Shown piece after piece: positions 4,955-64,000 of a stretch of 64,000 bases of DNA. The DNA is taken from contig JAZDMB010000012.1 of assembly GCA_043801445.1 (NCBI GenBank), positions 714 to 64,713 on the forward strand, given 5' to 3'. The translations under genes and the position numbers were made by a program. Position 1 is the first letter of the stretch; each line of letters starts with the position of its first letter. The notes under the pieces were generated by a model that worked only from the letters and a program-made list of their open reading frames with translations, searched no databases and had not been told where the DNA came from. This stretch comes from Planctomycetota bacterium. GTDB lineage: Bacteria > Planctomycetota > MHYJ01 > JACQXL01.

Positions 4955-7900
4955 ATGAAAAAGATATTATCGCTAAAAGCAAACATCACCAAAAGCGGGG
5001 TGTTAAAGGTCATCATTGGTATATTGTTTATTGGTTGTCTTACTATCTTTACTACCGAAATAACCTATGGGAGTAACTTAACCTTTAATGCTGTTAGGTT
5101 ACCACCGACCTGCATCACTCATCCTGCTACCAATATAAATTCTAATTCAGCTAAATTAAATGGCATGGTCAATCCTAATGGTTCTATCACTACGGCTTAT
5201 TTCCAGTGGGGTATGACTGCTTCATATGGGAATACCACAACTTCACAGTCCATCGGTAACGGGACAAATCATGTCCCGGTTAATACAGATATAAGCGGAT
5301 TATCAGCTAGTACCAGATATAACTTCAGAATTGTTGGAATCAATGCTAATGGAACAAGATATGGTAATAATCTGACCTTTACTACCAGAGGACTACCACC
5401 GACCTGCACTACTAATCCTGCTACAAATGTTACTCATTACTCAGCTAAATTAAATGGTTCTGTTAATTCTAATGGCATTGCTACACTTGCCTATTTCAAT
5501 TACGGCAAAACTATGTCATATGGTATCAATGCCGGTTATCAATTCATCTTTGGCACGACTCCTGTCAATGTTTCTGCTGCCATAAACGGATTATCATTTA
5601 ATACACTATATAATTTCCGGTTGGTTGGGACCAATTCTGCCGGAACAACATATGGGAATAATCTGACCTTTACTACTACTGGAATACCACCGACCTGCAT
5701 CACTACTCCTGCTACCAATATCACTTATAACTCAGCTAAATTAAACGGCATGGTCAATCCCAGGGATTCTATTACCACGACTTATTTTCAATGGGGTACG
5801 ACTGCTTCGTATGGGAATGCCACATCTTCACAGTCCATCGGTAGCGGGACAAGTTATGTTGCGGTTACGGCTAATATAAACGGATTATCAGCCAGCACAC
5901 GGTATAACTTCAGAGTGATTGGAACAAATACTAATGGAACAACCTATGGAAATAATCTGCCCTTTATTACTGCCGGACTACCACCGACCTGCACCACTAA
6001 TCCTGCTACAAATATTACTCATAACTCAGCTAAATTAAATGGTTCTGTCAATCCTAATGGTCCTTTCGCAATTGTCTATTTCAATTACGGTAAAACTATG
6101 TTATATGGCATCAATGCCGGTTATCAATTCATCTTTGGCAGAACTCCTGTCAATGTATCTGCTGCCATAGCAGGATTATCATTAAATACATTATATAATT
6201 TCAGGGTGGTCGGAATCAATGCTAATGGAATAACATATGGGAATAATCTGACCTTTACTACTCATGGAATACCACCAACATGCACTACTTATGCGGCTGA
6301 TAATATTACTTATAATTCAGCCAGATTAAATGGCAGGGTCAATCCTAAGGGTTCTATCACCACGGCTTATTTTCAGTGGGGGACAACTGCTTCATATGGG
6401 AATACCACAGCTTCACAGTCCATAGACAGCGGGACAAGTTATGTTCCGGTGCAGGGAGATATAAGCGGATTATCAGGAACTACACTATATAATTTCAGGG
6501 TGGTGGCAATCAATTCAGGAGGCACGACTAATGGAAATAATCTAACATTTACCACCGCAGTCCCACCACCAAATGCACCAACTAATTTAATCGCGACAAC
6601 AATGTCCAACAATTGCATACATCTTCAATGGACTGACAATTCAGATAACGAACAGGGATTTATAATAGAGCGTATAAATGAGTTAGAAACTGAAACAACA
6701 TGGGAATGGACTGACTATATGCAGGTTGCTGTAGTTGGTCCGAATATCATCTCATATTCTGATTGTAACCTTATATCAGGAGCCTACTATGGATATCGGG
6801 TTAAGGCATATAATGTTAATGGTCATAGTGAATATTCTAATGAGAGTTTTGTTGCTACACTACCTGTTGCGCCGATAAATCTTACCGCAACAACTGTTTC
6901 TTACAAACAAATAGACCTCAAGTGGGTTAATGTATGTAACAACTATAATGTTGGGGTTGGAATAGAACGCTCCACTGATGGAATAAACTATGAAGGTATT
7001 GGAGGATGTACTGCCGGTTTATCTGAGTTTAGTGATACTACTCTTCAACCAAATACCACTTACTATTATAGGGTTACAGCAGTTAATCGTGCTGGTCTAA
7101 GTCAGGATTTCGCTACCACATCAGTAACAACATTACCTCTTACAATTGCATATGCTATTTCAAATGTTAACAATTTATATCAAGCGAACTTGATTACAGA
7201 TGCAGCACTTTATACTTTCCTCATTGTGAACCTTAACGATGCTCAGAACTTCTATAATATTGGCGATATGGGTACAGCAATTGCTATATTGGAAATGGTA
7301 CAGAATCACATATGGCCAGCATTGGGTCAAGGAATTGACCAACAATCTGGCGAGGGACTCTATGACTATGTAGGCGATTTAATTTATTCAACTATGTCAG
7401 CCGCTGGTGAGACGCCTCAAACCACACATAAGAAAGCAATAGATAATGCAGCCAAAGATGCCAATAATAAAATAGACCAAAATGAAAGTTTGACCGACAG
7501 TCAAAAAGCAACACTTAAGCAGAAGATAGAGGAGATTAGCAGAACCGGCAAGGCTCTTATTAATATATATACACCAATGTCACCCCATCTCAATTCGGTC
7601 ATGGATACGATAGGTGAATGGACTATAAATAGAATGTCTCAGGCAGTTAGTAGGACGGATACCTGTCCTGAAGGATACTCTTGTGATGTTGAAATCAGTA
7701 GTATAGATGGTCAGAAACATGTTCCAGATCCAATTACTGGGACAATTGAACTCTCTAAAAAAGACTGGAAGTACACAGGCTCTATTGGTTTCAAGGCTAA
7801 AGGACCTGCCGGCAGTTCAATCGCAGGGACTTTCAATGTACAGCATTCACATCCTCCTCCGGCTACATTTAGATTTTATGATCCAGAACCACCGCACCGG

Positions 7901-8138: not shown

Positions 8139-9491
8139 ATGAAGTCTTTTATTATCTTGTTTATTTTGATAATTTTTATAGCAGTGGCAGGCTATTTTAT
8201 TATCAAGTGTTATCATCCTGACTCTTTGATTTCGCCTCCTTTTGAGCAAGACAAACATACTATAGAAAAGCATGTTGCAGATAAGAGGGATTCTAATCAA
8301 ACCAATATCCCAAAAAACATTGTAATAACATCTGATTTATCTGACCGAACAACAGCATCTGGTTCATCCTGCAGTTATACTACGGCAAAAGATTCTACCT
8401 CTGTAGAAGATAATTACTTTGATGATCTTCCCACTCGGATCCGGCAGACTGTTCCCGCTTCCGAACGACCGGCAAAGATTAAAGAATGCATTCGCCGATT
8501 AAAGGAAGAAAAGGCAAAATCACCATCATTCATTGGGGCGTGTGTTACGATTGTTGCACTTGACGCTAAAGAAGCAATCCCTGAATTAATAAACCTTCTG
8601 GATGATGAAGGCAAATGCTATATGGCTATGGTAACCCTTGGCGGGCTCGGCGCTAGAGAAGCAATTCCTAAAATAATGAACCTTCTGGATGATGAACACG
8701 AAGGCCTTACAGCCCTGCAAACCCTTGTCCGGCTTGGCGCCAGAGAGGCAATTCCTAAAATAATGACTTTACTGAATGATAAATATGCGGAAATACGAGC
8801 GGCTGCTGCTCAAAGTCTCAGCACCCTCGGTGCCAAAGAAGCAATTCCTGAAATAATGAACCTGCTGAATGATGAAAGTGGTCAAGTGCGCCTGGTTGCC
8901 GCTTGTGTTCTCGGCGACCTCGGCGTCAAGGAAGTAACAATCCCTGAATTAATAAAACTGCTGAATGATAAAAGTATTTCAGTACGTCTGTCTGCCGCTT
9001 GTGCCCTCGGCGACCTCGGCGCCAAAGATGTAGCAATTCCTGAACTAATAAAACTGCTGAAAACAACTGGAGATATATCTTCCTCTTTGTACATATCCGC
9101 TGCTCGTGCGCTCGGTAGACTTAACGCCAGAGAAGCAATTCCTGAACTAATAAAACTACTGGGTGACGAACGTGGTGATGTACGCCGGGCAGCCGGTGAT
9201 GCACTCGGTCAACTTGATGACATAGAGCCAATCCTTGAATCAACAAATCAGCCGATAGATGATGATTCTTTGTGGGCGTATAAAATAGCATTATCTATTA
9301 ATCCCAAAGACGCCTCAGCTTATCTTAATATGGGGTGCATTTATGAGGGGAGGTTAGATAACCTTTCCAAGGCACTTTTCTACTATACCGAATATCTGGA
9401 ATTGGCGCCACCAGATGCATGTGAGCGTAAGGATGTGGAACGATGGATTAAGGACTACCACAAACACTTTAATCATTCTCGTTCTAAGTAA
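8139..9491 (+). CDS. membrane-anchored HEAT-repeat (PBS-lyase-like) protein with C-terminal TPR-like motif, paralog 1
   Basis: About 9 repeats of 'AKEAIPELI(K/N)LL(N/D)DE...VR..AA.ALG.LG'. N-terminal TM helix MKSFIILFILIIFIAVAGYFII. I prefer the ATG at 8139 (GAGGTAGAGGATGAG upstream) over the track's TTG at 8067, which overlaps the preceding gene. Confidence 0.85.
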   Translation: MKSFIILFILIIFIAVAGYFIIKCYHPDSLISPPFEQDKHTIEKHVADKRDSNQTNIPKNIVITSDLSDRTTASGSSCSYTTAKDSTSVEDNYFDDLPTRIRQTVPASERPAKIKECIRRLKEEKAKSPSFIGACVTIVALDAKEAIPELINLLDDEGKCYMAMVTLGGLGAREAIPKIMNLLDDEHEGLTALQTLVRLGAREAIPKIMTLLNDKYAEIRAAAAQSLSTLGAKEAIPEIMNLLNDESGQVRLVAACVLGDLGVKEVTIPELIKLLNDKSISVRLSAACALGDLGAKDVAIPELIKLLKTTGDISSSLYISAARALGRLNAREAIPELIKLLGDERGDVRRAAGDALGQLDDIEPILESTNQPIDDDSLWAYKIALSINPKDASAYLNMGCIYEGRLDNLSKALFYYTEYLELAPPDACERKDVERWIKDYHKHFNHSRSK

Positions 9492-9587: not shown

Positions 9588-10283
9588 ATGATAAAGATAA
9601 GAATAAAATGGTTAATGCTTATCCTGTTGATATGCGTAATGCTCACGGACTGCGGTAATCTCTCTGACAAAAAAGACAAGGACGACAGCAGAAGTATCGC
9701 ACCCCTAACGGGGCAAGGCTCAGTGAAGAAGTCCCGAGAGGGACCGCTTTCCGGTAAACCAACACGAATGGTTTGGTATTATGCTGCAGGGCCAGATGGG
9801 GTCCGGTTCACCGCTGATGATGTGGGTTATTACGATTTCTACACCTATGATGTCCAGGGGAAACTGACACGAGATGTTAGCTATGCTTATGCAGGGGCAG
9901 ATGGGATTTGGTTCACCGCAGATGATGAGGGGGTTTACTACAATTCCTACACCTATGATGCCCAGGGGAAACTGACACGAGAGTCTAGCTATGCCAATGA
10001 CGGGATAGATGGGAGATGTTTCATTGCAACTGCTGTGATATGTGGCTACGATTCCTACACCTATGATGCCGAGGGGAACCTGACACGAAAGGTTTTGTAT
10101 CATGGTGCCGGGCCAGATGGGGTCTTCACTCCAGATGACCTGTTGCCTAGTGGATACTTTTTCTACACCTATGATGCCCAAGGGAGACTGACACGAGATG
10201 TTGAGTATTGTGATGCAGGGCCAGATGGTGTCTGGTTCACCGCTGATGATGATATGCGGTGGTACTCCTACACCTATGATTAA
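9588..10283 (+). CDS. small secreted/lipoprotein-like protein built from 5 YD (RHS-type) repeats
   Basis: Five repeats of 'GPDG(V/I)(W/R)FT.DD.....Y(T)YD.QG(K/R/N)LTR...Y'. N-terminal hydrophobic segment ends in ...VMLTDC. The ATG at 9588 has GAGG 6 nt upstream; the track's TTG at 9582 is an alternative. Confidence 0.8.
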   Translation: MIKIRIKWLMLILLICVMLTDCGNLSDKKDKDDSRSIAPLTGQGSVKKSREGPLSGKPTRMVWYYAAGPDGVRFTADDVGYYDFYTYDVQGKLTRDVSYAYAGADGIWFTADDEGVYYNSYTYDAQGKLTRESSYANDGIDGRCFIATAVICGYDSYTYDAEGNLTRKVLYHGAGPDGVFTPDDLLPSGYFFYTYDAQGRLTRDVEYCDAGPDGVWFTADDDMRWYSYTYD

Positions 10284-10705: not shown

Positions 10706-12055
10706 ATGAAGTCTTTTATTATCTTGTCTATTTTGATAATCTTTATAGTAGTGGCAGGCTATTTTATTATCAAGTGTTATCATCCTGACTCTTTGGTTTC
10801 GCCTCCTTCTAAGCAAGACAAACATACTATAGAAAAACATGTTACAGATAAGAGGGATTCTAATCAAACCAATATCCCCAAAAACATTGTAATAACATCT
10901 GATTTATCTAATCAAACAATAGCATCTGGTTCATCCTGCAGTTATACCACTGCAAAAGATAAGAACTACTCTGAACTTGCCGAACGGCTCCGGCAGACTG
11001 TTCCTGATTCCGAACGACCAGTGAAGATTAAAGAATTCATTCGCCAATTAAAAGAAGCAAAGGCACAATCACCACTATTCATTGGGGCGTGTGTTATGAT
11101 TCGCGCACTTGACGCTAAAGAAGCAATCCCTGAATTAATAAACCTTCTGGATGATGAAGACAAATGCTATATGGCCATGGTAACCCTTGGTGGGCTTGGC
11201 GCCAAAGAGGCAATCCCTAAAATAATAAACCTTCTGGATGATGAACGCGAAGGCCTTACAGCCACAAGAGTTCTTGGTGAACTCGGCGCCAAAGAGGCAA
11301 TTCCTAAATTAATGAATCTGCTGAATCATAAATATGAGGAAATGCGTGTGGCTGCTGTTCAAACTCTCAGCAAACTTGGCGCCAAAGAGGCAATCCCTGA
11401 ATTAACAAATCTGCTGAATGATGAAAGTGGTCAAGTGCGTCTGACTGCCGCTTGTGCTCTCGACAACCTCGGCGTCAGAGATGTAGCAATCCCTGAAATA
11501 ACAAAACTACTGAATGATGAAAGTATTTCAGTGCTACTGTCTGCCGCTTGCGCCCTCGGCGACCTTGGCGCCAAAGATGTAGCAATCACTGAACTAATAA
11601 AACTGCTGAAAACTGGAAAGCTCGCGCCGCCCGTCGCGTCCGTCTTCCGCGCATCCGCCGCTCGTTCACTCGGCAGATTTGACGCCAGAGAATCAATCCC
11701 GGAACTAATAAAACTACTGGATGATGAAGCTTGGGAGGTACGCCAGGCAGCTGGTGATGCACTCGGAGAACTTGATGATAAAGAGATAATCACTGACCCT
11801 AAACCAACGGAACCACTGAGAGATAAAGATTCTTTGTGGGCGTGTAAAATAGCATTGGCTATTAATCCCAAAGATGCCTTAGCTTATCTTTATATGGGAG
11901 TTATTTATCACGATAGATTCGATAACCCTTCCAAGGCAATTTTCTACTATACCAAATATCTGGAATTGGCGTCACCAGATGCACGTGAGCGTGAGGATGT
12001 GGATCGAGGGATTAAGGACTGCAACAAACGCATTAATCATTCTCGTTCTAAGTAA
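10706..12055 (+). CDS. membrane-anchored HEAT-repeat protein, paralog 2
   Basis: Colinear with 8139-9491: same N-terminal TM helix, same HEAT repeats, same C-terminal '...INPKDA.AYL.MG.IY......N.SKA.FYYT.YLELA.PDA.ER.DV.R.IKD......HSRSK'. The ATG at 10706 corresponds to 8139. Confidence 0.85.
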   Translation: MKSFIILSILIIFIVVAGYFIIKCYHPDSLVSPPSKQDKHTIEKHVTDKRDSNQTNIPKNIVITSDLSNQTIASGSSCSYTTAKDKNYSELAERLRQTVPDSERPVKIKEFIRQLKEAKAQSPLFIGACVMIRALDAKEAIPELINLLDDEDKCYMAMVTLGGLGAKEAIPKIINLLDDEREGLTATRVLGELGAKEAIPKLMNLLNHKYEEMRVAAVQTLSKLGAKEAIPELTNLLNDESGQVRLTAACALDNLGVRDVAIPEITKLLNDESISVLLSAACALGDLGAKDVAITELIKLLKTGKLAPPVASVFRASAARSLGRFDARESIPELIKLLDDEAWEVRQAAGDALGELDDKEIITDPKPTEPLRDKDSLWACKIALAINPKDALAYLYMGVIYHDRFDNPSKAIFYYTKYLELASPDAREREDVDRGIKDCNKRINHSRSK

Positions 12056-12142: not shown

Positions 12143-12437
12143 GTATCCCAAGGGATGACTGGCTTGTTCCAAGGGACGAAGGGTTTGTACTCAAGAACAG
12201 CTGAGTTGTACCAAGGAATAATTGGGCTGTTCCAAAGAACGAACGGTTTGTACTGAGGGACGAAGGGTTTGTACTGAAGAACGACTGAGTTGTACCAAGG
12301 AACAATTGGACTGTTCCAAGGAACGACCGGCTTGTACTGAAGAACGAACGCTGGTACTCAAGAACGAATGGCTTGTACTGAGGAACGAAGGGTTCATCCC
12401 TAGGGCTGAACGGTTTAGACTCAGGGATATCTGAGAT
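12143..12437 (+). repeat. 21-bp tandem repeat array 3 (about 14 units, with an 84-bp higher-order period)
   Basis: Units start at 12166, 12187, 12208, 12229, 12250, 12271, 12292, 12313, 12334 (a 20-bp unit), 12354, 12375, 12396 and 12417. A typical unit is GTACTGAAGAACGACTGAGTT. The 4-unit block 12187-12270 is repeated at 12271-12353. Confidence 0.9.
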
Positions 12438-12560: not shown

Positions 12561-12782
12561 AATTAATTAGACGAAGCAAGAAAACTTCGTAACCACAGAC
12601 AAACACAGATTGACACAGATAATTGACGATATTTTATAAGGAATCCATTAGACCAAGATTAATCCTTTCTTGTATTCTTGGTCTCTTTATAGACATATCG
12701 TATTGCTCTGTGAACTCTGTGGCTAATTTTTACCTGTGCCCGTAGGGTATACTTTCCTATACCTTAAAAAAAGGAGTAGTTT

Positions 12783-14948: not shown

Positions 14949-14996
14949 CTGTTATATACCAGCAGGCTTTCTCTGTGTACTCTGTGTCTCTGTGGC

Positions 14997-15998
14997 TTAT
15001 CCCCTCAACACGACCACATCAAATGTATTATCCGCTATAGCCGGCTGGTTTAGTAAGATTGAAACACCTGTGCCTTGCGGTAACCCAGGTAACAGGAATA
15101 GTTGCCTGATTAACTGGTCTTGATTCGTGGGAATAGAGTAACCTAAAATCACACCGCCATTCAAATCCGGGTCTCCCAAAGGCGGATATAACCCGCCTAC
15201 TTGTAATGCTGGAATTGTGATGCTGACAATCTTATAACTTAATTTAGTTTTCGATACCGCGCCATCGGCAATTTCACCTGTTGCAACAGGAGGGACTAAC
15301 GGCCTCACCGCTCCACCCGGAACAAAAGACAATTTCTCCGGTGTTACTGCACCGTTACTAATCTTGGCGGTCTCTACTGCGTTCGTGGCAAGTTTAGCAG
15401 CAGTAACTGCGCTGGATGCAATCTTCTGAGCGATTATTGAAGCATCGGCAATCTCATCAGTCGCAACCGGTGGCGTTATCGGGCGGACAATAGACGGCGG
15501 AACAAAAGACAATTTCGCCGGAGTTACCGAGCCATTGGCTATCTTCTCCGTTGTAACCGCACCATTCGCTAACCGAGCACTGCTAACTGCCCCAGATGCA
15601 ATCTTCGCACTCGTTACTGCGCTGGTGGCAATCTTCTCGGTCGTTACTGCGCCATTGATTATCTTCTCGGTGATAACGGTATTCGGTTGTAGGTGAGCGG
15701 TGCTAATTGCGCCATTCGCTAGTCGCTCACCGCTAACCGCTCCAGGGGCAATCTTCAGTGTTGTTACTGCGCCGGTGGCGATTTTCTCAGTTGTGACACA
15801 TGCATCCTTTAACCGGGAACTGCTTACCTGTTTCTCGCCGATTTTATCACGGGTCACCGCTCCATTAGCAATCTTTTCGGTAGTTACACTTGCAACCTGT
15901 AACTTAGAACTTGAAACCTGCAACTCGCCTATTTTAGGCGCTGTCACCGCGCCGTTAGCAATATGCTCGGTCTTTACCTCATTCGGTAATAATGACAT
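14997..15998 (-). CDS. decapeptide-repeat (fibre-like) protein of unknown function, cassette copy 1 gene B
   Basis: About 19 units of 'T(E/D)KIA.GAVT'-type 10-residue repeats, then a C-terminal domain nearly identical to that of 61733-62587. No signal peptide. Confidence 0.8.
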   Translation of the reverse strand: MSLLPNEVKTEHIANGAVTAPKIGELQVSSSKLQVASVTTEKIANGAVTRDKIGEKQVSSSRLKDACVTTEKIATGAVTTLKIAPGAVSGERLANGAISTAHLQPNTVITEKIINGAVTTEKIATSAVTSAKIASGAVSSARLANGAVTTEKIANGSVTPAKLSFVPPSIVRPITPPVATDEIADASIIAQKIASSAVTAAKLATNAVETAKISNGAVTPEKLSFVPGGAVRPLVPPVATGEIADGAVSKTKLSYKIVSITIPALQVGGLYPPLGDPDLNGGVILGYSIPTNQDQLIRQLFLLPGLPQGTGVSILLNQPAIADNTFDVVVLRG

Positions 15999-16010
15999 AA
16001 TATACCTTTC

Positions 16011-16058
16011 AAATCCCCCTCTTCTCCCCCTTTGATAAAGGGGGATGAAGGGGGATTT
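16011..16058 (-). terminator. conserved two-tier G5/C5 hairpin between cassette genes A and B (copy 1)
   Basis: AAATCCCCC-N-CCCCCTTTG..CAAAGGGGG-N-GGGGGATTT. Flanked by an A-tract and a T-tract. Confidence 0.5.
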
Positions 16059-16073
16059 ATCTATTCGTTTTAA

Positions 16074-16733
16074 CTATGGACTGACCGTGCATTTGGCGGT
16101 TTCGCTGAACGGACCCGTGCGTATCTTCTTATCAAACCACTGCGCCCGGTATTCCACATTAGTCGGCTCGGTTATTGCCAGATTGTGTAAATAGGGGCTG
16201 TTGGTGTCATCCGCCACGAATGTCCACGGCCCGCTTTCTATCCGATACGAGATTCTTGCACCGGCAATGTCAGCCGGCTTGGCATTGCGTTTCTCATTGG
16301 ACGGGTTAACGCCGAAATGAACCGTCACCTGTCCGCGCTGTTTCCAGTCCAGAATCAGGTTAGGTGGCGCCAGATTCAGCACATAGTCCGGCGGAATCGG
16401 GGTCGGTTCCCTATCCGGCACGGTAATTGCCAGAATTTCGCGGTTTGCGTCGGTCATCCCCGGATGTTTCTGGAGCATCCCTGCCACAGCCCTGACCGCA
16501 TCTTTAGCAGCATCACGCAATTCATCCTTGTTTTCTGCGGCTGATTGGGCGGTATTTTGTGCCGTCTGGAGCGCCACATAACCAATCAGCCAATCATCAT
16601 AGGCATCGGTTACTGCGGTAATCAAAGCCGGGGCAATCCCCAGCGGAGTCGCAATCACACTGATATTAGTGCTGAAATTACGAAGCCATTCGTCAAACTG
16701 GGCGTCCACCCTTGGTATATAATCTCTTGCCAT
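16074..16733 (-). CDS. hypothetical protein (helical N-terminal half, beta-rich C-terminal half), cassette copy 1 gene A
   Basis: Paralog of 60939-61613 (YIP..DA.F..W..NF..., ...DTNSPY.HN..., ...AQWFD...R.GPF). Strong SD AGGAGGTGAAAT before the ATG. Confidence 0.8.
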   Translation of the reverse strand: MARDYIPRVDAQFDEWLRNFSTNISVIATPLGIAPALITAVTDAYDDWLIGYVALQTAQNTAQSAAENKDELRDAAKDAVRAVAGMLQKHPGMTDANREILAITVPDREPTPIPPDYVLNLAPPNLILDWKQRGQVTVHFGVNPSNEKRNAKPADIAGARISYRIESGPWTFVADDTNSPYLHNLAITEPTNVEYRAQWFDKKIRTGPFSETAKCTVSP

Positions 16734-16796: not shown

Positions 16797-17076
16797 CTGA
16801 AACAAACCGGTCGTTGCTCTCTACGAACCGGTCGTTGCCCTCTACGAACCGTTGTTGTCATCTACGAACCGGTCGTTGCCTTCTACGAACTAGTCGTTGC
16901 CCTCTACGAACCAGTCGTCGCTCTCTACGAACCGGTCGTTGCTTTCTACGAACCGGTCGTTGCCCTCTACGAAACATCGTTGCCTTCTACAAACCGGTCG
17001 TTGCCCTCTACGAATCCCTTGTCGCTCTCTACGAACGAGTTGTCGCCCTCTACGAACTTCTCGTAGCTCTCTACAA
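16797..17076 (-). repeat. 21-bp tandem repeat array 1 (about 13 units), upstream of cassette copy 1
   Basis: The plus-strand unit is CTACGAACCGGTCGTTGCCCT (gene orientation TCGTAGAGGGCAACGACCGGT). Two units are 20 bp, which shifts every reading frame. Confidence 0.9.
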
Positions 17077-47590: not shown

Positions 47591-50572
47591 TTATTTATTT
47601 TGAGAATTATCGCTTGGCAATTCCTTTTTTATTTTCTCTATATTTTGTTTAGCTTGTTGCGCAGCCGGAGTTTCCCCGTATTTCTGGATTATTTGCTGAT
47701 AAAGCCAAAGCGCCATATTTAATTGTTTCTCTTTCAAGTAGCCATCAGCAACTACCATCACTTTTTCGGATTTTTGTTTATCATCGGAAACCTTTGCCTG
47801 CTGGGTTTCCGTTTTTATCGTCTGGATAATATTCTTAGCGCGCTCGGAGTATTCAGTATCCTTATACAAATTGACAATACTCTGAAACATTTTTAATGTC
47901 TTATCATATAAGGAAAAGTCTCTCATTATCCGTGCGGTTGACAATGAATCAAAAGCGTTTTGAACGCTTTCTTTAGCCTTATTTTCTAATGCATTTAATT
48001 TATCTTGAACTGCAGGAACATCATTAGGCTTTTTGTTCGACCCGGATGTAATCAAACGATATAATTTTATAGCTTCACCAAAGTTATTATTTCTCTCTGC
48101 TTCCTCAGCTTTACTCAATATCCGCTCCCAATCAGTTTGACCTGGTATTGTTGATTGCAACCCAAATTCTATCTCAAAACTTAAAGGATTCTTGGTCTTG
48201 GATGAAGGTAACGCCTTCTCGTCTTTAGGTGCCACTGCTGATGGTTGAAAAGAGTGAGCAAAATACAGCATATCTGAATCACGTGTAATCACAATGTCTA
48301 CCGGTTGTGAATATTTCAAGATAGCAATATTACTGATTAATCCGAGGTCCATTTCAGTTATCATTTTTTCACTAATCTTCTCATATAAAGATTTTTCTAT
48401 GGTTTCTCCGGCAGTGTTTAATAATCTTACATATTTTACATCTCCTATTGGCAATGAACAAACCAAGGAAAAATGTTTAGCCATAAGGGAATTATAAAGA
48501 TTAGAAGGGAAATTGTAATTTATCCCAAGTGCCGGACTGATATACGATTCCATTGAAATGTCCATTACATCCAAGGAACCCGGGTGAACTATCTGGTTTG
48601 TAAGATTAATATTCTCATTTTGCGTATGGCTTACTATTTTCCCGAGACCATAAAAACTCTGGCGTGATTCTGTGTTCTCAGGCTTAAAAACCAATTCGCC
48701 TTTCAAGTGCATTAAACGCTCTGTATCCTGTAATCTCCAGATACCTGAAGGAGCAATCGTAAGTTTATATGATTGATTAGTTAAAGTTAACTTGTCTGTT
48801 ATTATTTGAGGCAATACCCTATCCGAATAGATTTGTAATAATGAAATGTTATCGAAATAAACTTTGGCGTTTGCTCCTAAAACTACACAAGAAACCCTGA
48901 GATATTCAGTCTCTAAGGTAGGTTTAGTATTTATCTTGCAATAACGCCACTCATTAGAACTCGATATAAAATCAGAGTAATCCTCCCTAATCACTTGATA
49001 CTCATCATCAAGCCAGGTAATCTTATAGCCTGATAACGATTTCTTAAACTGGTCTGATTTTATCCATCCGCCAAAATTATATATTTCGCTAGGATTAGTT
49101 TTTGCTTTTGCCGGCACTCTGAAAATGGAATTATAGGTTAACTCGGTATAGAATTCCTTGCTATTATCCTTTTCTATCATAAGTGAATGCTGGCCATCCT
49201 GATATTCCCTATCGGTAACGATTGCTTTAATAGTGCTATCTGAAAGAGGCTGCCAGCCATTGGGGAACATTGCCGGACGACTGAATTGTTCAAACGATGC
49301 CCCATCCGCAACAAGATTCACCTTTTGATTCATCCCTTCTTTCATCTTGATATAACCATACACCAATATTGCACCGCTTATCAATATTATAATAGCGGCT
49401 TTTGATAATAACGCGAAAATATTTCTGTAAGGAGTACTGATAAATTCCTCAGCCGGTGATGATGCGTAAATTACCATCGGCTTTTCCTTAACCAATTCTT
49501 TCCCGAAGATTATTACGGCATCACCGATTTCTATCTCATCGCCGATTTCCAATTTCCTCTCTTTAATTCTGTTATCATGGAAATAGATACCGTTATGGCT
49601 GTCTAAATCAACGATAACATAACCATCAGGAGTTTTTCTTATCTGGGCATGCGAACGCGAAACACCTTTATCGTCTAAAACCACCTCATTTTTCTTGTCC
49701 CGCCCGATTGAAATGACATCCTTGTCCAATTGAAGTGTTTTGGTTGCATCACCTTCTTTTATAATTATTTGTGCCTCGGAAGTTGAAACCGGTCTTTCTT
49801 CGAGTTTCTCTTTACCTTTCTCTTTCTCTAATTCTTTCCCAAAGATAATTGTCGCCTTACCGATTTTTATCTCATCGCCGATTTCCAATTTTCTCTCTTT
49901 AATTCTGCTATCATGGAAATAGATACCGTTATGGCTATCCAAATCAACGATAACATAACCATCAGGAGTTTTTCTTATCTGGGCATGTACACGCGACACA
50001 CCTTTATCCTCTAAAACAGCCTCGTTTTTGCTGCTCCGCCCGATGGATATGCTATCCTTATCCAATTTAATTGTTTTAGAAGAAGTGCCTTCTTTTATGA
50101 TTATTTGTGCCACAGGACCAGGACCCGAAGATGGCTGTCCGTCACCACTCGGCTGTTCTTCGCCCTTACGGGACTGCTCCGCCGCCGCCTGTGGCGAGCC
50201 TAGCCCATCGGGGCTGGAAGATAGTCCGTCAGGAATGCCACTCTGCCGCTCCGGAACAGCGGAGGATGACTTTCCTTCGGCTGTCTCCGAGCCTTTCTCA
50301 AAGATAATTGTCGCCTTACCGATTTTTATTTCATCGCCGGCTTCTAATTTCCTTTCCTTAATCTTGTTATCATGAAAATAGATGCCATCAGGACTATCCA
50401 AATCAACGATAACGTAACCATCAATAGTTTTTATTATCCGGGCGTGGACATCCGAAACACCGCTATCTCCCAAAACCACTTCATTTTTGCTGTCTCGCCC
50501 GATTGAAATGACATCCTTATCCAGTTGAAGTGTTTTGGTTGCGTCACCTTCTTTTATAATTATCTGTGCCAT
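47591..50572 (-). CDS. triple-FHA-domain transmembrane protein with periplasmic jelly-roll-like and TPR-like regions
   Basis: Three ~95-aa near-identical FHA units ('AQIIIKEG...K...L.KD.ISIGR..KNE.VL.D.GVSR.HA.I.KT.DGYVIVDLDS.NGIYFHD..IKERKLE.GDEI.IG.A.IIF'). One TM helix. The C-terminal ~570 aa is extracytoplasmic. Start is uncertain (ATG 50572 or TTG 50587; neither has an SD). Confidence 0.85.
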   Translation of the reverse strand: MAQIIIKEGDATKTLQLDKDVISIGRDSKNEVVLGDSGVSDVHARIIKTIDGYVIVDLDSPDGIYFHDNKIKERKLEAGDEIKIGKATIIFEKGSETAEGKSSSAVPERQSGIPDGLSSSPDGLGSPQAAAEQSRKGEEQPSGDGQPSSGPGPVAQIIIKEGTSSKTIKLDKDSISIGRSSKNEAVLEDKGVSRVHAQIRKTPDGYVIVDLDSHNGIYFHDSRIKERKLEIGDEIKIGKATIIFGKELEKEKGKEKLEERPVSTSEAQIIIKEGDATKTLQLDKDVISIGRDKKNEVVLDDKGVSRSHAQIRKTPDGYVIVDLDSHNGIYFHDNRIKERKLEIGDEIEIGDAVIIFGKELVKEKPMVIYASSPAEEFISTPYRNIFALLSKAAIIILISGAILVYGYIKMKEGMNQKVNLVADGASFEQFSRPAMFPNGWQPLSDSTIKAIVTDREYQDGQHSLMIEKDNSKEFYTELTYNSIFRVPAKAKTNPSEIYNFGGWIKSDQFKKSLSGYKITWLDDEYQVIREDYSDFISSSNEWRYCKINTKPTLETEYLRVSCVVLGANAKVYFDNISLLQIYSDRVLPQIITDKLTLTNQSYKLTIAPSGIWRLQDTERLMHLKGELVFKPENTESRQSFYGLGKIVSHTQNENINLTNQIVHPGSLDVMDISMESYISPALGINYNFPSNLYNSLMAKHFSLVCSLPIGDVKYVRLLNTAGETIEKSLYEKISEKMITEMDLGLISNIAILKYSQPVDIVITRDSDMLYFAHSFQPSAVAPKDEKALPSSKTKNPLSFEIEFGLQSTIPGQTDWERILSKAEEAERNNNFGEAIKLYRLITSGSNKKPNDVPAVQDKLNALENKAKESVQNAFDSLSTARIMRDFSLYDKTLKMFQSIVNLYKDTEYSERAKNIIQTIKTETQQAKVSDDKQKSEKVMVVADGYLKEKQLNMALWLYQQIIQKYGETPAAQQAKQNIEKIKKELPSDNSQNK

Positions 50573-50761: not shown

Positions 50762-51766
50762 ATGACAGGAAAAAACATAGTCAAAATCGGCGCAATCTTA
50801 ATGGTCGCACTTATGTTAAATATCTCTCAACTAACTTATAGCAAGGAGGAAAAACAAATGCCTAACCCACCGCTCAAACTGACTATATCTTCTCCTCAAA
50901 CAGAAGTGGTTATCGGCGATTGGATTCAGATTGACTTAACACTTGCCAATACGACCGATATGGATATGAGGGTGGTAAAACCGGTTATTGATATTGATTC
51001 TATTTCATTCCAAATAAAAAATACTCCCCTATCGGATAAAGAAAAAGCTTGGAGTTTTATTTATTCCACCATTACGCCATCGGTTTATGAGCATAAAAAG
51101 GATACTATGGAGAAAATCACCATTGCAACTAAATCGGAATTCAAAACCAAGTTTAATATACCGGCTTTAGTCCTTGCCTCATGGCAGATTAAGGCTTCTT
51201 ATCAGGGTGGCTCAGGAATAGTTTCATCCGAACTATTGGATTTCAAAATCATACCGCCTAAATCGGAAAAAGCCGATGAGGTTATTAATGACGGAGAATT
51301 AACCGCAACTATAGAAACATCAAAAGGCACAATGTCCTGCAGATTCTTCTTTAATGCCGCGCCCAATACTATGCTTAATTTCGTAAAATCAGCCAAAGAT
51401 GGATTTTACAATAATCTTATCTTCCACAGGATTATTAAAGGGTTTATGATTCAGGGCGGATGCCCTCAAGGAACCGGAACGGGCGGACCGGGTTATTCCA
51501 TTAAAGCTGAATTTAATAAGAATAAGCATCTGAAGGGAATCCTATCTATGGCGCGAAGTACCAGCAATGACAGCGCCGGCAGCCAATTCTTCATCTGTTT
51601 AGCGCCCGCACCATCATTAGATAATCAATACACTGCCTTTGGAGAACTATTGGAAGGTAAAGATGTTTTAGATGCTATCGGCTCTGTGAAAACCGGAGCC
51701 AGCGACAGACCTGTAGAAAATGTTACAATAAAAAAGATATCCGTCGGCTTTAAAGCAAAGAAGTAA
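50762..51766 (+). CDS. secreted cyclophilin-type peptidyl-prolyl isomerase with N-terminal beta-rich domain
   Basis: Signal/anchor, then a ~160-aa unknown domain, then the cyclophilin core 'FHRII.GFMIQGG.P.GTGTGGPGY.I..EF......H..G.LSMAR.....SAGSQFFI'. Confidence 0.9.
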   Translation: MTGKNIVKIGAILMVALMLNISQLTYSKEEKQMPNPPLKLTISSPQTEVVIGDWIQIDLTLANTTDMDMRVVKPVIDIDSISFQIKNTPLSDKEKAWSFIYSTITPSVYEHKKDTMEKITIATKSEFKTKFNIPALVLASWQIKASYQGGSGIVSSELLDFKIIPPKSEKADEVINDGELTATIETSKGTMSCRFFFNAAPNTMLNFVKSAKDGFYNNLIFHRIIKGFMIQGGCPQGTGTGGPGYSIKAEFNKNKHLKGILSMARSTSNDSAGSQFFICLAPAPSLDNQYTAFGELLEGKDVLDAIGSVKTGASDRPVENVTIKKISVGFKAKK

Positions 51767-51856
51767 AACACGAATGGCACGAATGCGACGAATAGCACGA
51801 ATATTAAAATATAATCTCTTATTCGTGAGATTCGTTTTATTCGTGTGATTCGTGTT
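51767..51856. repeat. CACGAAT-word long hairpin element (empty)
   Basis: AACACGAATGGCACGAATGCGACGAATAGCACGAAT ... ATTCGTGAGATTCGTTTTATTCGTGTGATTCGTGTT. The termini are shared with the copy at 1144-1241. Confidence 0.85.
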
Positions 51857-60444: not shown

Positions 60445-60540
60445 ACGACATCGGGGTTAGAACCGGTTTGAGCGTGGCGACATCGGGGTTAGAACCGATT
60501 TGAACGTAGCGACATCAGAGCTAGACCCGGTTAGAAAGGA
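60445..60540 (+). repeat. three tandem 32-bp repeats
   Basis: ACGACATCGGGGTTAGAACCGGTTTGAGCGTG / GCGACATCGGGGTTAGAACCGATTTGAACGTA / GCGACATCAGAGCTAGACCCGGTTAGAAAGGA. The third unit runs into the SD-like motif. Confidence 0.85.
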
Positions 60541-60546
60541 GGTGAT
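60532..60546 (+). promoter_or_regulatory. 15-nt complement of the 16S rRNA 3' tail (TAGAAAGGAGGTGAT) at the head of array 2
   Basis: Perfect complement of a Bacillus-type 16S 3' end ...AUCACCUCCUUUCUA. Followed by TTG at 60547. Confidence 0.6.
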
Positions 60547-60557
60547 TTGATACAAAG

Positions 60558-60725
60558 GGCAGGGAAGGTTTTTCAGACGTCTGGAATAGTTTTCCAGATA
60601 TCTGGAACAGTTTCCCATATGTCTGGAATTATTTTCCAGATGTCTGGAATGATTTCCCAGATGTCTAGAATAGTTTTCCAGATGTATGGGAAAGTTTTCT
60701 GGATGTTCGTGAAAGTCCTACGAAT
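60558..60725 (+). repeat. 21-bp tandem repeat array 2 (8 units), upstream of cassette copy 2
   Basis: Units fall exactly at 60558, 60579, 60600, 60621, 60642, 60663, 60684 and 60705. The consensus GTCTGGAATAGTTTTCCAGAT carries the internal dyad TCTGGAA-N5-TTCCAGA. Confidence 0.9.
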
Positions 60726-60938
60726 GTCCATAACCCCGATGGTTATCGGGATAAGAGGTTGTCCCTAACGGGACTCCCTGCGGTCGTAACGACCATAGGT
60801 CTAACAGCCTCTAATGCTATACAATATAAGGACTTAGAAGCCCCGATGTCGCTGACGCTCATCGGGATAAGACCCAGTAACGCCCTTACCCGATTAGCAT
60901 CGGGTAATTGCTAACTGGCTCTAAAAAGGAGATGTAAG

Positions 60939-61613
60939 ATGGGAAAAAATTATATACCGACAACAGACGCTGATTTTGAGCTCTGGCAGGTGAATTTTGT
61001 GACCAAGGTAGTGGCAACCCCAGCCGCTTATGGGCTTTTGCCGGCTGATGTGATTGATGTCGGAATTGATTCAACTGACTGGCAGACGGCTCTGGCGGCA
61101 TTAGTTGTCGCCCAAAACGCGGCTAAAGGCGCGGCTGAGACTAAGGATGAAGCCCGCGATACCCTGGAATCAGAGGTCCGCAGTTTAGCCAAAAGGATTC
61201 AAGCCAGACCAGCCACGACCGATGCCCAGAGAGAAGAATTGGGTATTACCGTGCCTGACCTGACCCGGACGCCGCTTTCGGAGCAGATTGTCCTGACCAC
61301 GCCGCCGCCGATAGTTGAAGCCAAGTGCACCGGCGCCAAAACCGTCCGGATTGACTGGTATCCAACTCAGGCCCCCGGAGAAAGCGAGGCATTACCCCAG
61401 GGCATTAACGGCGTGTCTATTTTCTACGCCGAAGGCGGGATTCCCAGCGATGAGAGTCAATGGCGTTTCTTAGCACTGGATACCAATTCGCCCTATGTCC
61501 ATAATGTTGCCAATGATGCTACCGTTACCGTGGCATATAAGGCGCAATGGTTTGACCGGCGTAAGCGGTTGGGACCGTTCGGCAATCCGGTAGTCGTGGC
61601 TGTAACCGCGTAA
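60939..61613 (+). CDS. hypothetical protein, cassette copy 2 gene A
   Basis: Paralog of 16074-16733. SD AAAAGGAG. Confidence 0.8.
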   Translation: MGKNYIPTTDADFELWQVNFVTKVVATPAAYGLLPADVIDVGIDSTDWQTALAALVVAQNAAKGAAETKDEARDTLESEVRSLAKRIQARPATTDAQREELGITVPDLTRTPLSEQIVLTTPPPIVEAKCTGAKTVRIDWYPTQAPGESEALPQGINGVSIFYAEGGIPSDESQWRFLALDTNSPYVHNVANDATVTVAYKAQWFDRRKRLGPFGNPVVVAVTA

Positions 61614-61646
61614 AAAAATAAGTAACTTGCCACAGAGGCACTAAGT

Positions 61647-61691
61647 AAATCCCCCCTTCCCCCTTTGTCAAAGGGGGAGTGAGGGGGATTT
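61647..61691 (+). terminator. conserved two-tier G5/C5 hairpin between cassette genes A and B (copy 2)
   Basis: AAATCCCCCCTTCCCCCTTTGTCAAAGGGGGAGTGAGGGGGATTT followed by AATT. Same architecture as 16011-16058. Confidence 0.5.
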
Positions 61692-61732
61692 AATTCCTTC
61701 GTGTCTTCGTGTCAGAAAGGTAATTTAATTTT

Positions 61733-62587
61733 ATGCCATTGAAACCGAATGAAGTAAAGACCGAGCATATTGCTGACCGCGCAGTGATAACATCAAAGAT
61801 TGCGCCTCTGTCAGTAGGCAGTAGTCAGTTGGCACCGGGTAGTGTAATTACGGAGAAGATTGCAGATGCGTCAGTGACCCGTGATAAAATCGGAGATGCA
61901 CAGGTGACCGGCTCTCGCCTGCGGGATGCCAGTATCACCACTCCGAAAATCGCTAATAATGCCATCACCACAGATAAAATCGGCGTTGGGCAGGTGACCG
62001 GCGCCAAGATGGCAGACAAGACGATAACTGCAGAGAAGATTGCCACCAGCGCGGTGACCACATCCAAAATCGGAGAGTTACAAGTCACGCAAGCCAAGTT
62101 GCAGGATGCCAGTGTCAGCACGCCGAAAATAGCCAATAATGCTGTGACAACACAGAAGATTGTCCTTGGGGCGGTTAACGGTGAGCGGTTAGCGAATGGC
62201 GCAGTTAGCACCGAGAAAATAGTCAATGGCGCAGTGACGCCTGAGAAATTGTCGTTTGTGCCGGGCGGAGCGGTGAGACCATTAGTCCCGCCGGTGGCTA
62301 CAGGTGAAATAGCAGATGGCGCGGTGACGAAATCTAAATTGAGTTATAAAGTTATTAGCATCACAATTTCAGCCCAACAAGTAGGCGGGTTATATCCTCC
62401 TTTAGGAGACCCTGATTTGGATGGCGGTGTGATTTTGGGTTACTCTATACCCACAAATCAAGACCAGTTAATTAGGCAACTGTTCCTGTTACCGGGGTTA
62501 CCGCAAGGCACCGGTGTTTCAATCTTGCTTAACCAGCCAGCTATAGCGGATAATACATTTGATGTGGTGGTACTAAAAAGTTTATAG
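61733..62587 (+). CDS. decapeptide-repeat (fibre-like) protein, cassette copy 2 gene B
   Basis: About 15 units of 10-residue repeats ('TEKIADASVT RDKIGDAQVT GSRLRDASIT TPKIANNAIT ...'), then a C-terminal domain nearly identical to that of 14997-15998. Confidence 0.8.
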   Translation: MPLKPNEVKTEHIADRAVITSKIAPLSVGSSQLAPGSVITEKIADASVTRDKIGDAQVTGSRLRDASITTPKIANNAITTDKIGVGQVTGAKMADKTITAEKIATSAVTTSKIGELQVTQAKLQDASVSTPKIANNAVTTQKIVLGAVNGERLANGAVSTEKIVNGAVTPEKLSFVPGGAVRPLVPPVATGEIADGAVTKSKLSYKVISITISAQQVGGLYPPLGDPDLDGGVILGYSIPTNQDQLIRQLFLLPGLPQGTGVSILLNQPAIADNTFDVVVLKSL

Positions 62588-62672: not shown

Positions 62673-63674
62673 TTAATATTCCCGTGTTGTAATCATAGTA
62701 AACGCTTCAGTGGAAAATAGAGATTGGTTTATGCTAGTATAATATGCAAAAACAATACGCACCATAATTTGTCTGGCACTGGTTGGTCCTATTATTTGCA
62801 CCTCAAAACCATTAGGGAAACCGTCTCCTGAAGTACTGGCGTTTGCATATTTAGGAACTATATCAGGAGTATGGAATTGAGCAGAGGTATTCCAGGCAAC
62901 AGATGCAATACCGGTGCCTAAACTCTGAATGACAGAATGAACTTCATTTTTCTCTATGGTATAACCTGCACTTGCTGAGCCGGCAATACCACCTGTTGCA
63001 TCAATCGAATAAAAAGCAGTACTGACTGTATTACGAGGTATCCAGAGATATCTGATTCCGCGATTTGCGTATAGATTGCTTACAAAGGTAGAGCGAGCCG
63101 AGCCGACAACAGGAATTGACATAACCTGGTTATAATCCACAAATTCTATACTCGTCCATTTGGCTAATCGCAGGCTTTTTGGCTTAGTCGCGATAGTACA
63201 AGTAATCGGTGAAAGATAGTAATAAACAAAGGTATAAATGTCCGCCCGGCGTGTTGAACCGCCGGCATTACCAATAAAAGGAGGCGATTCCTTGACGAAA
63301 AGTAATGCGTTGCCTGTTCGGCTCGTTGTAGTGTCATGATGTAAAGTGCCGGTAGAATCAATTAAAGCCAGAGTGGTCGTAGAAAGTGCCGGGTAAGTGG
63401 TATCGCTTTGCAATTTAGCAAGATACGCCTGACCTAAAGCATCATTTTGCAATAGTATACGTGCCTGAGTGGCATCAATGTTTATTTCGTCTGTTGCACT
63501 CTGTCCCCACTGGGTTAATGAATTCCATGCGTTCATTGAAAAATTAGAGATTTGTGATTGCAAAACAATTTGGTAGGTGCCAACAGCCACAACTGAAAGA
63601 CAAGCCATTACCATCATTAATTCAATAAAAGTCGTCCCTTTTATGCACTTATTATTTGGCATATTGTTTTTCAT
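62673..63674 (-). CDS. prepilin-type N-terminal domain protein (type IV pilin / pseudopilin-like)
   Basis: 'KGTTFIELMMVMACLSVVAVGTY' matches the G|(F/T)T(L/F)IE cleavage/methylation motif followed by a hydrophobic helix. ATGA overlap with the upstream gene. Confidence 0.7.
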   Translation of the reverse strand: MKNNMPNNKCIKGTTFIELMMVMACLSVVAVGTYQIVLQSQISNFSMNAWNSLTQWGQSATDEINIDATQARILLQNDALGQAYLAKLQSDTTYPALSTTTLALIDSTGTLHHDTTTSRTGNALLFVKESPPFIGNAGGSTRRADIYTFVYYYLSPITCTIATKPKSLRLAKWTSIEFVDYNQVMSIPVVGSARSTFVSNLYANRGIRYLWIPRNTVSTAFYSIDATGGIAGSASAGYTIEKNEVHSVIQSLGTGIASVAWNTSAQFHTPDIVPKYANASTSGDGFPNGFEVQIIGPTSARQIMVRIVFAYYTSINQSLFSTEAFTMITTREY

Positions 63675-64000
63675 CTATTAATAAATATTTTTTGTTGGTG
63701 ATACGAATAATGGCAGGTTTGACTATTTCTATACGCTTCCACCATAACGACATAACTGCCTTCTATAAAATAACCGGTGTTAGAAACATCCCAATTGTAG
63801 GTCTCGTTTTCTTCTGTAGTTAGGTCATTAAGCCAGAGTGATTGATTGGGTATACCCGGTGTTGCGGCCGAATTGTCAATAATGTGTTTCCATGACACGC
63901 CATTATCACTGGAATAAAGCAATGCATATTTCAAATCGCTTTCTGTTTCAGTAAACCCTGCAGGATAAGCCGTAGTATATTTTAGTTTGTCCCACCGTGT
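63671..64000 (-). CDS. hypothetical protein with a BNR/Asp-box motif, 5' end outside window
   Basis: By my translation the frame stays open to nt 64000 (…TRWDKLKYTTAYPAGFTETESDLKYALLYSSDNGVSWKH…), so the track's TTG at 63934 is probably internal. 'SSDNGVSW' fits S-x-D-x-G-x-(T/S)-W. Confidence 0.6.
   Translation of the reverse strand, partial: TRWDKLKYTTAYPAGFTETESDLKYALLYSSDNGVSWKHIIDNSAATPGIPNQSLWLNDLTTEENETYNWDVSNTGYFIEGSYVVMVEAYRNSQTCHYSYHQQKIFINR

Follow-up and report, generated by a model that had tools for sequence, protein, structure and literature searches.

Iteron and centromere arrays, among them the iterons of R6K and pSC101, parC of R1 and pSK41 and sopC of F, are rows of ~20-bp direct repeats in helical phase, in some cases (sopC) with an inverted repeat in each. 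The gene or operon under their control follows immediately downstream, and every element has repeats of its own sequence; the adjacent gene encodes the protein that binds the repeats (Rep, ParR or ParB), and a replicon or a partition NTPase is present. Another kind of tandem repeat, the mycobacterial interspersed repetitive unit (MIRU), lies between co-oriented genes, has a unit that is a multiple of three, and has small open reading frames (ORFs) whose ends abut the flanking genes. Here we analyse 64,000 nucleotides of DNA from a Planctomycetota bacterium (contig JAZDMB010000012.1; "the window" denotes this whole stretch), in which two loci share the same order of parts: a 21-bp tandem array, a gene that we call A, a GC-rich hairpin and a second gene, B. 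The iteron and centromere arrays are the closest architectural analogue of these loci, in which a putatively controlled gene is likewise adjoined by helically phased tandem repeats about 20 bp long.

The conserved unit is a Shine-Dalgarno (SD)-like leader, a 21-bp array and gene A, not the pair of A and B. The finding is broader than the gene pair with which a preliminary description of this DNA was concerned: it is a widespread unit of leader, 21-bp palindromic array and FN3 gene, with a hairpin and a fibre gene as a lineage-specific extension.

The conserved unit and its two window copies

The period of the array was determined by autocorrelation of the 700 bp upstream of A. Wherever a genome locus offered sufficient sequence, this gave 21 bp (or 42 or 63) almost without exception. 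Of 38 genome loci, 36 have their best period at 21 or 42 bp, and an array of 4-14 units, ending 3-450 bp before the ATG of A, could be delimited in 36; among independent metagenome loci the best period is 21 or 42 bp in 63 of 67. Overall, an array is retained in ~99 of 105 loci. A single locus (L068) has another best period (39 bp), and L018 has an extra 22-bp sub-array beside its 21-bp array. Distant high-GC members of the A family also carry arrays, which show up in gene calls as heptad repeats joined in frame to A. Within 378 kb of locus DNA, all strong 21-bp arrays but one lie upstream of A; the exception (L015 6629-6960, minus strand) stands directly upstream of an FKBP-type (peptidyl-prolyl isomerase) lipoprotein gene with the SD GGAGGAGGTGATTT, and this type of array can therefore serve another gene.

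The distribution of B is much narrower. A B-like gene follows A in 10 loci, with an 11th cut by a contig end, all of them in Planctomycetota/Brocadiia; V1871_00505 (an A) and V1871_00510 (a B) are adjacent by locus tag as well. A without B is found in Stahlbacteria, WOR-3, Sumerlaeota and others. The idea that array, A, hairpin and B always travel together thus holds for array and A, which are joined across many phyla, and fails for B, which stands behind A in Planctomycetota/Brocadiia only.

In the window, the same gene pair had been reported in the same order at two loci, both keeping the intergenic hairpin and the upstream 21-bp array, and all of this stands: the four ORFs, a hairpin in each copy and an array in each, called by Tandem Repeats Finder (TRF), were located as follows (pI, isoelectric point).

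60534-60549, plus strand: copy 2 leader 16-mer GAAAGGAGGTGATTTG; an identical 16-mer heads the copy 1 array
60550-60733, plus strand: copy 2 array, ~7-9 units of 21 bp (TRF, unit register, palindrome analysis)
60734-60938, plus strand: copy 2 trailer, from array to A2, with several CCCGATG/CATCGGG hairpins and the A2 Shine-Dalgarno AGGAG at ~60927-60931
60939-61613, plus strand: gene A2, ORF of 224 aa, pI 4.7
61647-61691, plus strand: A2-B2 intercistronic GC-rich stem-loop AAATCCCCCC...GGGGGATTT, no U-tract, z = -7.7
61733-62587, plus strand: gene B2, ORF of 284 aa
17074-17089, minus strand: copy 1 leader 16-mer GAAAGGAGGTGATTTG, 13 nt past the stop codon (17103) of a co-oriented PiT gene
16805-17073, minus strand: copy 1 array, ~12 units of 21 bp (TRF, unit register, palindrome analysis)
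16074-16733, minus strand: gene A1, ORF of 219 aa, pI 5.2; A2 paralogue with the other FN3 subtype
16011-16058, minus strand: A1-B1 intercistronic GC-rich stem-loop, z = -5.3
14997-15998, minus strand: gene B1, ORF of 333 aa; B2 paralogue with a longer shaft and the same C-terminal domain
12164-12394, no strand assigned: weaker "orphan" array with 21/42/84-bp periods (TRF), without an adjacent A gene

The TRF calls themselves span 16805-17074 (12 units) and 60562-60716 (7 units), besides the weaker 12164-12394. For the 16-mer GAAAGGAGGTGATTTG shared by the two copies, the chance expectation is 0.03 matches. A tblastn search of A and B against the window found no copy beyond the two of each.

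Gene A fits no described family, as had been stated from the sequence alone: searches of Pfam, NCBIfam, PADLOC, PHROGs and PDB sequences gave no family match (in PHROGs nothing below E = 0.1), and no relatives were found in IMG/VR or in 50,697 phage genomes (INPHARED). A word-indexed search returned 110 clusters of relatives, all annotated "hypothetical", from Planctomycetota/Brocadiia, Stahlbacteria, WOR-3 and Sumerlaeota, the best of them from uncultured Planctomycetota metagenome-assembled genomes (MAGs). A profile search of 1.84 billion representatives extended this to 5,615 clusters (defined at 50% identity) with a cut-off of E <= 1e-3, of which 3,169 reach E <= 1e-10; with few exceptions they are 215-230 aa long. 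The family is multi-copy across many phyla, with 2-8 copies per MAG in GTDB representative genomes; there are, for instance, 8 loci in CSMAG_2279, 7 in one Stahlbacteria MAG, 6 in one WOR-3 MAG and 4 in the Planctomycetota MAG219.

Structure prediction and fold search, which the preliminary description had proposed for A, gave an FN3-like sandwich and a helical part without an informative match. The AlphaFold2 model (27-sequence alignment; mean predicted local distance difference test score, pLDDT, 88.6) has helices at residues 10-26, 35-57 and 62-89, a conserved linker and a beta-sandwich at 125-222; in A2 the three helices are long and N-terminal, the linker reads LGITVPD..TP and the C-terminal sandwich is FN3-like. 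With Foldseek, FN3 domains or proteins that contain them make up nearly all of the top 38 PDB hits of the sandwich (E down to 9e-5; TM-score, normalised to the target, up to 0.76 for residues ~125-222), and the modelling thereby shows a predicted FN3-like fold for the C-domain, to which the Pfam FN3 model itself gives no match. Neither the model nor Foldseek revealed a helix-turn-helix, ribbon-helix-helix or winged-helix fold in A, whose N-domain has a pI of 4.45. The halves of A are exchangeable: the N half of P0071 is 68% identical to A2 and its C half 75% identical to A1, and P0060, P0065 and P0071 compared with A1 and A2 indicate that the helical N half and the FN3 C half are swapped independently among paralogues and join at the LGITVPD linker. 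The FN3 half comes in two subtypes (A1-type and A2-type), which are paired with several N-domain types.

Array anatomy and what the array may do

Unit sequences differ at every locus, and the spacing of adjacent units is exactly 21 bp in 220 of 224 cases. The consensus of the copy 2 array, GTTTTCCAGATGTCTGGAATA, is the palindrome TTCCAGA-tg-TCTGGAA plus a purine-rich spacer, with degenerate units at the edges; that of copy 1, read on the A strand, is CGACCGGTTCGTAGAGGGCAA and contains the weak palindrome ACGAccggtTCGT. Searches with the units of both arrays found no copies elsewhere in the window. Palindromes are well above expectation in the metagenome arrays, with arms of at least 5 bp in 42% (against 12% of shuffled units) and of at least 6 bp in 21% (against 2.6%). 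In the first set, from genomes, 12 of 32 arrays have arms that reach 6 bp or more, and all spacers are 3 nt or less. Wherever arms are at least 5 bp long, the spacers are mostly 0-3 nt and never exceed 4. A common core is recognisable: GAA-N0-4-TTC occurs in 23 of 79 arrays where 1.9 are expected (the reverse order in 5, against 2.0), and AACGGTT in 7 arrays where 0.1 are expected. Within arrays, mismatches are fewer in the palindrome arms than in the rest of the unit (11.7% versus 18.0%, p = 0.03), and the edge units resemble an ancestral unit common to the loci, as concerted evolution predicts.

The leader that heads the array is conserved within lineages. In Planctomycetota it is (A)AAGGAGGTGATTTG, and GGAGGTGATTT was counted 18 times in 719 kb (window plus loci), in 11 cases running straight into a 21-bp array; the conserved leader of WOR-3-type loci is another one, ATGAAKGATTTAGGGAGGTCTGTGAA. 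Over as many as 14 nt, the 16-mer with its preceding A is complementary to the canonical 3' tail of 16S ribosomal RNA (a general sequence, not this genome's own). This Shine-Dalgarno sequence is an "orphan", with no start codon at normal spacing, and a nearby TTG is often directly followed by TAG.

Our tentative preference is to read the array as a control element of operator type, helically phased and acting in cis, that lies in or just ahead of the transcribed leader of A (probability about 0.35). The strict period of two helical turns, the short-spacer palindromes, their conserved arms and the common GAA..TTC core together point to DNA-level sites for a dimeric protein other than A. A position within the transcribed leader is suggested by the short gaps between array and A (only 3-30 bp to the ATG at many loci), by sigma-70-like hexamers read by eye upstream of the array in L001, L051 and L053, by the copy 1 leader lying just past the PiT stop codon, and by a coding-like purine excess (sense-strand purine fraction 0.556 in arrays versus 0.552 in coding sequence); the array is therefore probably transcribed.

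The unit comprises a conserved leader with a very long SD-like motif, 4-14 repeats of 21 bp (two helical turns), each typically a 12-16 bp palindrome with a purine-rich spacer, gene A (~222 aa) and, in Planctomycetota only, the stem-loop and B. Under the operator-type reading, a dimeric DNA-binding factor other than A would bind the row of operator-like palindromes cooperatively, and the bound array, acting as a cooperative repressor platform or as a roadblock, would keep A (and B) firmly silent or stop read-through coming from genes upstream, while the intercistronic hairpin would make A much more abundant than B. The two proteins would be modular binding or structural proteins made in the cytoplasm, and recombination shuffles the N and C halves of A and the tip domains of B. 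The sequences and models show the anatomy and how it is conserved, the strict period, the enrichment of palindromes and of GAA..TTC, the absence of coding or of RNA-specific signatures, the FN3 fold and the conserved hairpin; binding by a protein, repression, the ratio of A to B and any role in the cell are what we infer. The possibility that A binds its own array was considered and rejected, as A is acidic and A genes that are 94% (L019/L020), 92% (L037/L038) and 89-97% (L013/L014) identical stand behind unrelated arrays.

Several points weigh against an operator. Strong palindromes are present in only ~40-55% of the arrays, and the units of copy 1 and of L011 are barely palindromic; the shared GAA..TTC core could in part reflect common descent rather than selection; and a pure operator model leaves the conserved super-SD leader unexplained. 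Twenty-one bp is also seven codons, and in five of six WOR-3-type cases an ATG-led ORF (MNDLGRSVKES...) is open through the array. The copy number of the array did not vary among the compared samples with identical A, which lends no support to a switching role (compared with contingency loci, the arrays were identical in 3 and in 2 samples with identical A, probably from the same populations), and the factor that would bind the array is a putative one.

It is also possible that array and A form an undescribed and very widespread expression unit in which the strictly 21-bp, helically phased array of fast-diverging palindromes, behind its orphan super-SD, gives every one of a genome's several paralogous FN3 (and fibre) genes its own private control sequence, or in which the self-complementary repeats drive locus-specific (homotypic) pairing of DNA or RNA. 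Private control sequences, if real, could permit individually addressable or mutually exclusive expression of a modular repertoire of surface or binding proteins.

The orphan super-SD and the purine-rich spacers keep a role at the level of RNA or the ribosome as the main rival to the operator-type reading, one that we consider unlikely. The array would be a structured RNA leader whose tandem small hairpins, with purine-rich (GGA/AGG, SD-like) linkers, act on the mRNA; they could make the message more stable, recruit a CsrA-type or other RNA-binding protein, or retain the 30S subunit, with the super-SD as a standby site. Where the gap to A is only 3-30 bp, as at many loci, the array must indeed be transcribed, and the complementarity to the canonical 16S 3' end fits a ribosomal role. 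The copy 2 leader is strongly folded (60534-60945, z = -7.35), whereas that of copy 1 is not unusually structured (z = +0.11). The plus strand of the arrays is enriched in AGG (14:1 against its complement), AAG (18:3) and A(N)GGA (0.34 versus 0.09 per unit), but the purine bias is the same as in coding sequence, and GGA reaches at least 0.7 per unit in only 16 of 32 arrays. In a comparison with Csr/Rsm-type multi-GGA RNAs, which present GGA in the hairpin loop of every unit, the GGA of the arrays was usually seen inside the stem, not in the loop. Mismatches in the arms show no G:U excess (G:T 72 versus A:C 81), the scheme offers no reason to keep exactly 21 nt over ~100 independent arrays, and Rfam gave only spurious microRNA-like matches.

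Rather improbable, in our view, is a translated array, that is, an upstream ORF of seven-residue repeats that starts from the leader SD and ends at the SD of A, serving translational coupling, as has been proposed for the intercistronic MIRU repeats, or else a functional repeat peptide. The seven-codon period, the strength of the leader SD and the conserved MNDLGRSVKES frame agree with it, as do an ORF in L053 whose stop overlaps the start of A (TAATG) and the frequency with which gene callers call array ORFs. However, the antisense strand is at least equally open (fully open frames 1.28 on the minus against 0.94 on the plus strand; stop-free cover 0.98 against 0.95), no start codon precedes the array in at least 9 of 32 cases, and in copy 1, L062/63 and L067 the sole start (TTG) is directly followed by TAG. 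Frame-breaking 20-bp units occur, the heptads have no common composition and differ mostly non-synonymously, and coding would leave the palindromy unexplained. The coding array was rejected as a general rule on the grounds of the open antisense strand, the missing starts and the 20-bp units.

Distinctly improbable is the view that the array has no regulatory role and is a self-perpetuating tandem repeat inherited with A, persisting through the easy slippage of palindromic units and serving mainly as a hot spot of recombination by which A and B modules are shuffled. It would account for the free turnover of units, with unrelated arrays behind A genes that are 89-94% identical, and for the mosaic halves of A; many A loci lie at contig ends, and the ancestral-like edge units fit concerted evolution. 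Array-containing blocks are, in addition, replaced between syntenic loci that are otherwise 90-95% identical, and the boundary falls exactly at the SD of A. These divergent blocks also cover the upstream gene or a 3-kb insertion with a methyltransferase-Mrr gene, and hypermutation specific to the array was ruled out because neighbouring genes are included. Copy 2 and L005, by comparison, have arrays that can be aligned (74%) much as their coding sequences can (73%). What such a neutral origin explains poorly is the near-universal retention of the array across phyla, in a family of thousands of clusters, hard to account for without selection, and the fixed 21 bp, since a neutral array should drift in unit length; the arms are also more conserved than the spacers, the GAA..TTC core is common and the leader motif is conserved.

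Gene B, the two copies and their surroundings

Although B had been described as a protein that could not be placed, its decapeptide shaft repeats match the phage tail-fibre family phrog_892 (E 1e-34 to 1e-42), and B1 and B2 against PHROGs hit phrog_892, 28766 and 21412 (E 1e-20 to 1e-42). B2 is built of the N-terminus MPLKPNEVKTEHIA, a shaft of 10-residue repeats of tail-fibre type, a SFVPGGAVRPLVPP linker and a highly conserved C-terminal domain of ~80 aa; the B proteins have in common the N-terminus MPLQPNEVKTEHIA, a shaft of variable length and SFVP..RP..PP linkers. Their C-terminal domains belong to at least four unrelated types that are exchangeable, and the type found in the window has >90% identity across 10 proteins in the full-length search. 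A search with this domain alone returned one match where the full-length search returned at least 10 proteins, a sensitivity artefact. The AlphaFold2 monomer model of B2 has a pLDDT of 43.

A phage or tailocin origin, with A and B as the remnant or satellite cassette of a tail fibre (B) and its adaptor or chaperone (A), would fit the receptor-binding-protein layout of B (conserved N-terminus, repeat shaft, swappable tip), its tail-fibre matches, the T7 tail-fibre (PF03906), Peptidase_S74 (PF13884) and beta-helix domains of its distant relatives, and the frequency of FN3 domains in phage tail proteins. We nevertheless regard it as very unlikely. The absence of a prophage context, noted at the outset, is borne out: the ten nearest large ORFs in the window are ordinary chromosomal ones (histidine kinase, PhoU-like/PiT, TonB-dependent receptor, HEAT-repeat proteins, aminotransferase), with no integrase, transposase or phage gene among them (the check covered these ten only), and no phage genes occur at any locus examined. 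Clusters of baseplate, tail or capsid genes are absent at the loci, whose neighbours include PiT/PhoU, the TonB receptor and HEAT proteins in the window and tRNA synthetases, PGK and cargo genes of the type IX secretion system (T9SS), among others, at related loci. Furthermore, A has no relatives in the viral and phage collections searched and lacks B in most phyla, and at least 9 B paralogues (counted in one MAG) and multiple A paralogues per genome are scattered among housekeeping genes.

Between A and B, a strong stem-loop is present in 11 of 11 B-bearing loci, with z from -4.2 to -9.0, differing stem sequences and no U-tract, against a median folding z of -1.8 in loci without B. It may protect the A message or partly terminate it, and would in either case leave A above B in amount.

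The preliminary description took the whole unit for a duplicated, possibly mobile module. A repeated multi-part unit of array, A, hairpin and B does exist, but a fresh duplication does not agree with A copies that are just 41% identical over their full length (E 8e-49). B1 and B2 are 61% identical overall and nearly identical over the last ~115 aa, and at the DNA level the two copies can be aligned in the B C-terminus only (87.5%), plus weakly in the shafts. Within the conserved C-terminus 26 of 234 nt differ, with 18 synonymous against 5 non-synonymous codon differences, a dominance of synonymous change that indicates purifying selection and not recent copying. The two window copies are old paralogues, two members of a large multi-copy family. 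Evidence of recombination lies in the shuffled halves of A and in the exchanged array blocks described above.

Mobility is the part of the module idea that found no backing, and a mobile element seems to us extremely unlikely. The unit is multi-copy in non-syntenic positions, its loci often adjoin variable genes (methyltransferase-Mrr fusions at 5 loci, T9SS cargo genes), and copies from different phyla are much alike (62-64% identity between Planctomycetota and Stahlbacteria). Against this, the loci showed no transposase or integrase, nor any terminal inverted repeats or target duplications, the paralogues are old, and the unit boundaries are not the same between copies.

Both kinds of variable neighbour are recurrent, and in the phyla where A lacks B they frequently adjoin it, although the enrichment is weak. 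Genes for a fused N6/N4 DNA methyltransferase and Mrr-type nuclease recur near A loci (L014 4507-5739, L001 2540-3919, L011 7801-8961, L023 4594-5382 and L034 2578-3516); the L014 gene belongs to the 3-kb insertion that sets this locus apart from the syntenic L013 and lies immediately upstream of the array. In genomes of the FCB group, A units frequently adjoin T9SS cargo genes, with a Por_Secre_tail C-terminal domain or encoding gingipain-like C25 peptidases (L011 991-3276, L012 1158-3776, L021 30-332, L031 137-556 and L051 3692-5233), which may be a weak enrichment or merely reflect the abundance of such genes.

Other repeats are plentiful in the window. The array at 12164-12394 sits between a HEAT-repeat gene and a 721-aa HEAT/cyclase-like gene; its units are rich in GGAAC/GTTCC and GTAC and resemble the first units of the L030 array, and it may be a relic of the A-linked element or reflect a second use of it. 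Two intergenic elements of like build (1142-1245 and 51766-51853) have ~4 direct 9-10-bp repeats (N)CACGAAT(N), a short AT-rich gap and ~4 inverted ATTCGTG(N), each thus being a long imperfect hairpin, and similar runs of CACAGA/ACACGAA are found behind B1 (14960-14990) and around 12590-12620. Immediately 5' of the copy 2 leader, at 60446-60536, are 2.8 copies of a 32-bp repeat, CGACATCGGGGTTAGAACCGGTTTGAACGTAG, which together with the CCCGATG...CATCGGG hairpins of the trailer (60730-60910) looks like a family of repetitive extragenic palindromic (REP)-like elements, absent from copy 1. Large tandem repeats (291, 87/96, 108 and 336 bp) are found within HEAT-repeat, RHS-like and other large ORFs (5100-6498, 8564-9061, 9785-10252, 11107-11610 and 49494-50111), and in locus L003 of a related MAG the A-B unit is flanked by the same 108-bp-repeat lipoprotein and HEAT-repeat genes. 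Downstream of copy 2 (62673-63934, minus strand) are a 333-aa ORF with a type II secretion/pseudopilin-like N-terminus (FIELMMVMA), for which Pfam gave no match, and then an 87-aa ORF.

Significance and comparison with known systems

The A family numbers thousands of sequence clusters, has no name and no Pfam model, and shows an unusually regular cis-architecture; it is multi-copy in Planctomycetota, WOR-3, Stahlbacteria, Elusimicrobia, KSB1, Sumerlaeota and other little-known phyla. The array provides a simple sequence signature by which A loci can be found and annotated. If the fibre-like B and the FN3 protein A form a surface or particle structure, the loci could partly explain variation in the binding repertoire of uncultivated bacteria.

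Tail-fibre proteins (phrog_892 and related) share with B the decapeptide shaft, a conserved N-terminal anchor and interchangeable C-terminal domains. B differs from them in having neither a virion or tailocin context nor a downstream chaperone, in being multi-copy in cellular genomes, and in that the C-terminal domain found in the window is conserved, not variable, among paralogues. The likeness of A to FN3 domains lies in the predicted sandwich; unlike the FN3 domains that Pfam models recognise, A has this part fused to a unique three-helix N-domain and carries no signal peptide.

The arrays resemble MIRUs in being tandem repeats between co-oriented genes with a unit length divisible by three, an abutting sense ORF being present in the WOR-3-type subgroup only; they differ in that the sense strand is no more open than the antisense strand, in that their ORFs often lack a start, in that the units are palindromic, and in that the array is bound up with a single protein family. 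Like the leader-repeat arrays of CRISPR loci, they have a conserved leader followed by partly palindromic repeats of at least 21 bp beside a conserved gene, but their units are contiguous, without spacers, many arrays occur per genome, and no cas genes were seen in the Pfam-annotated neighbourhoods. With respect to iteron and centromere systems, A is acidic, of FN3 type and does not co-vary with the repeats, the loci are chromosomal and number up to 8 per genome, and no ParA, ParM, TubZ or Rep genes were seen in the annotated neighbourhoods. Literature word searches on 21-bp tandem or palindromic repeats found nothing relevant. We therefore rate the array and A unit as assignable to no described kind among the systems compared, its function being one that we infer; the two-helical-turn period, kept while the sequence turns over, suggests a principle of control or assembly for which those systems do not account.

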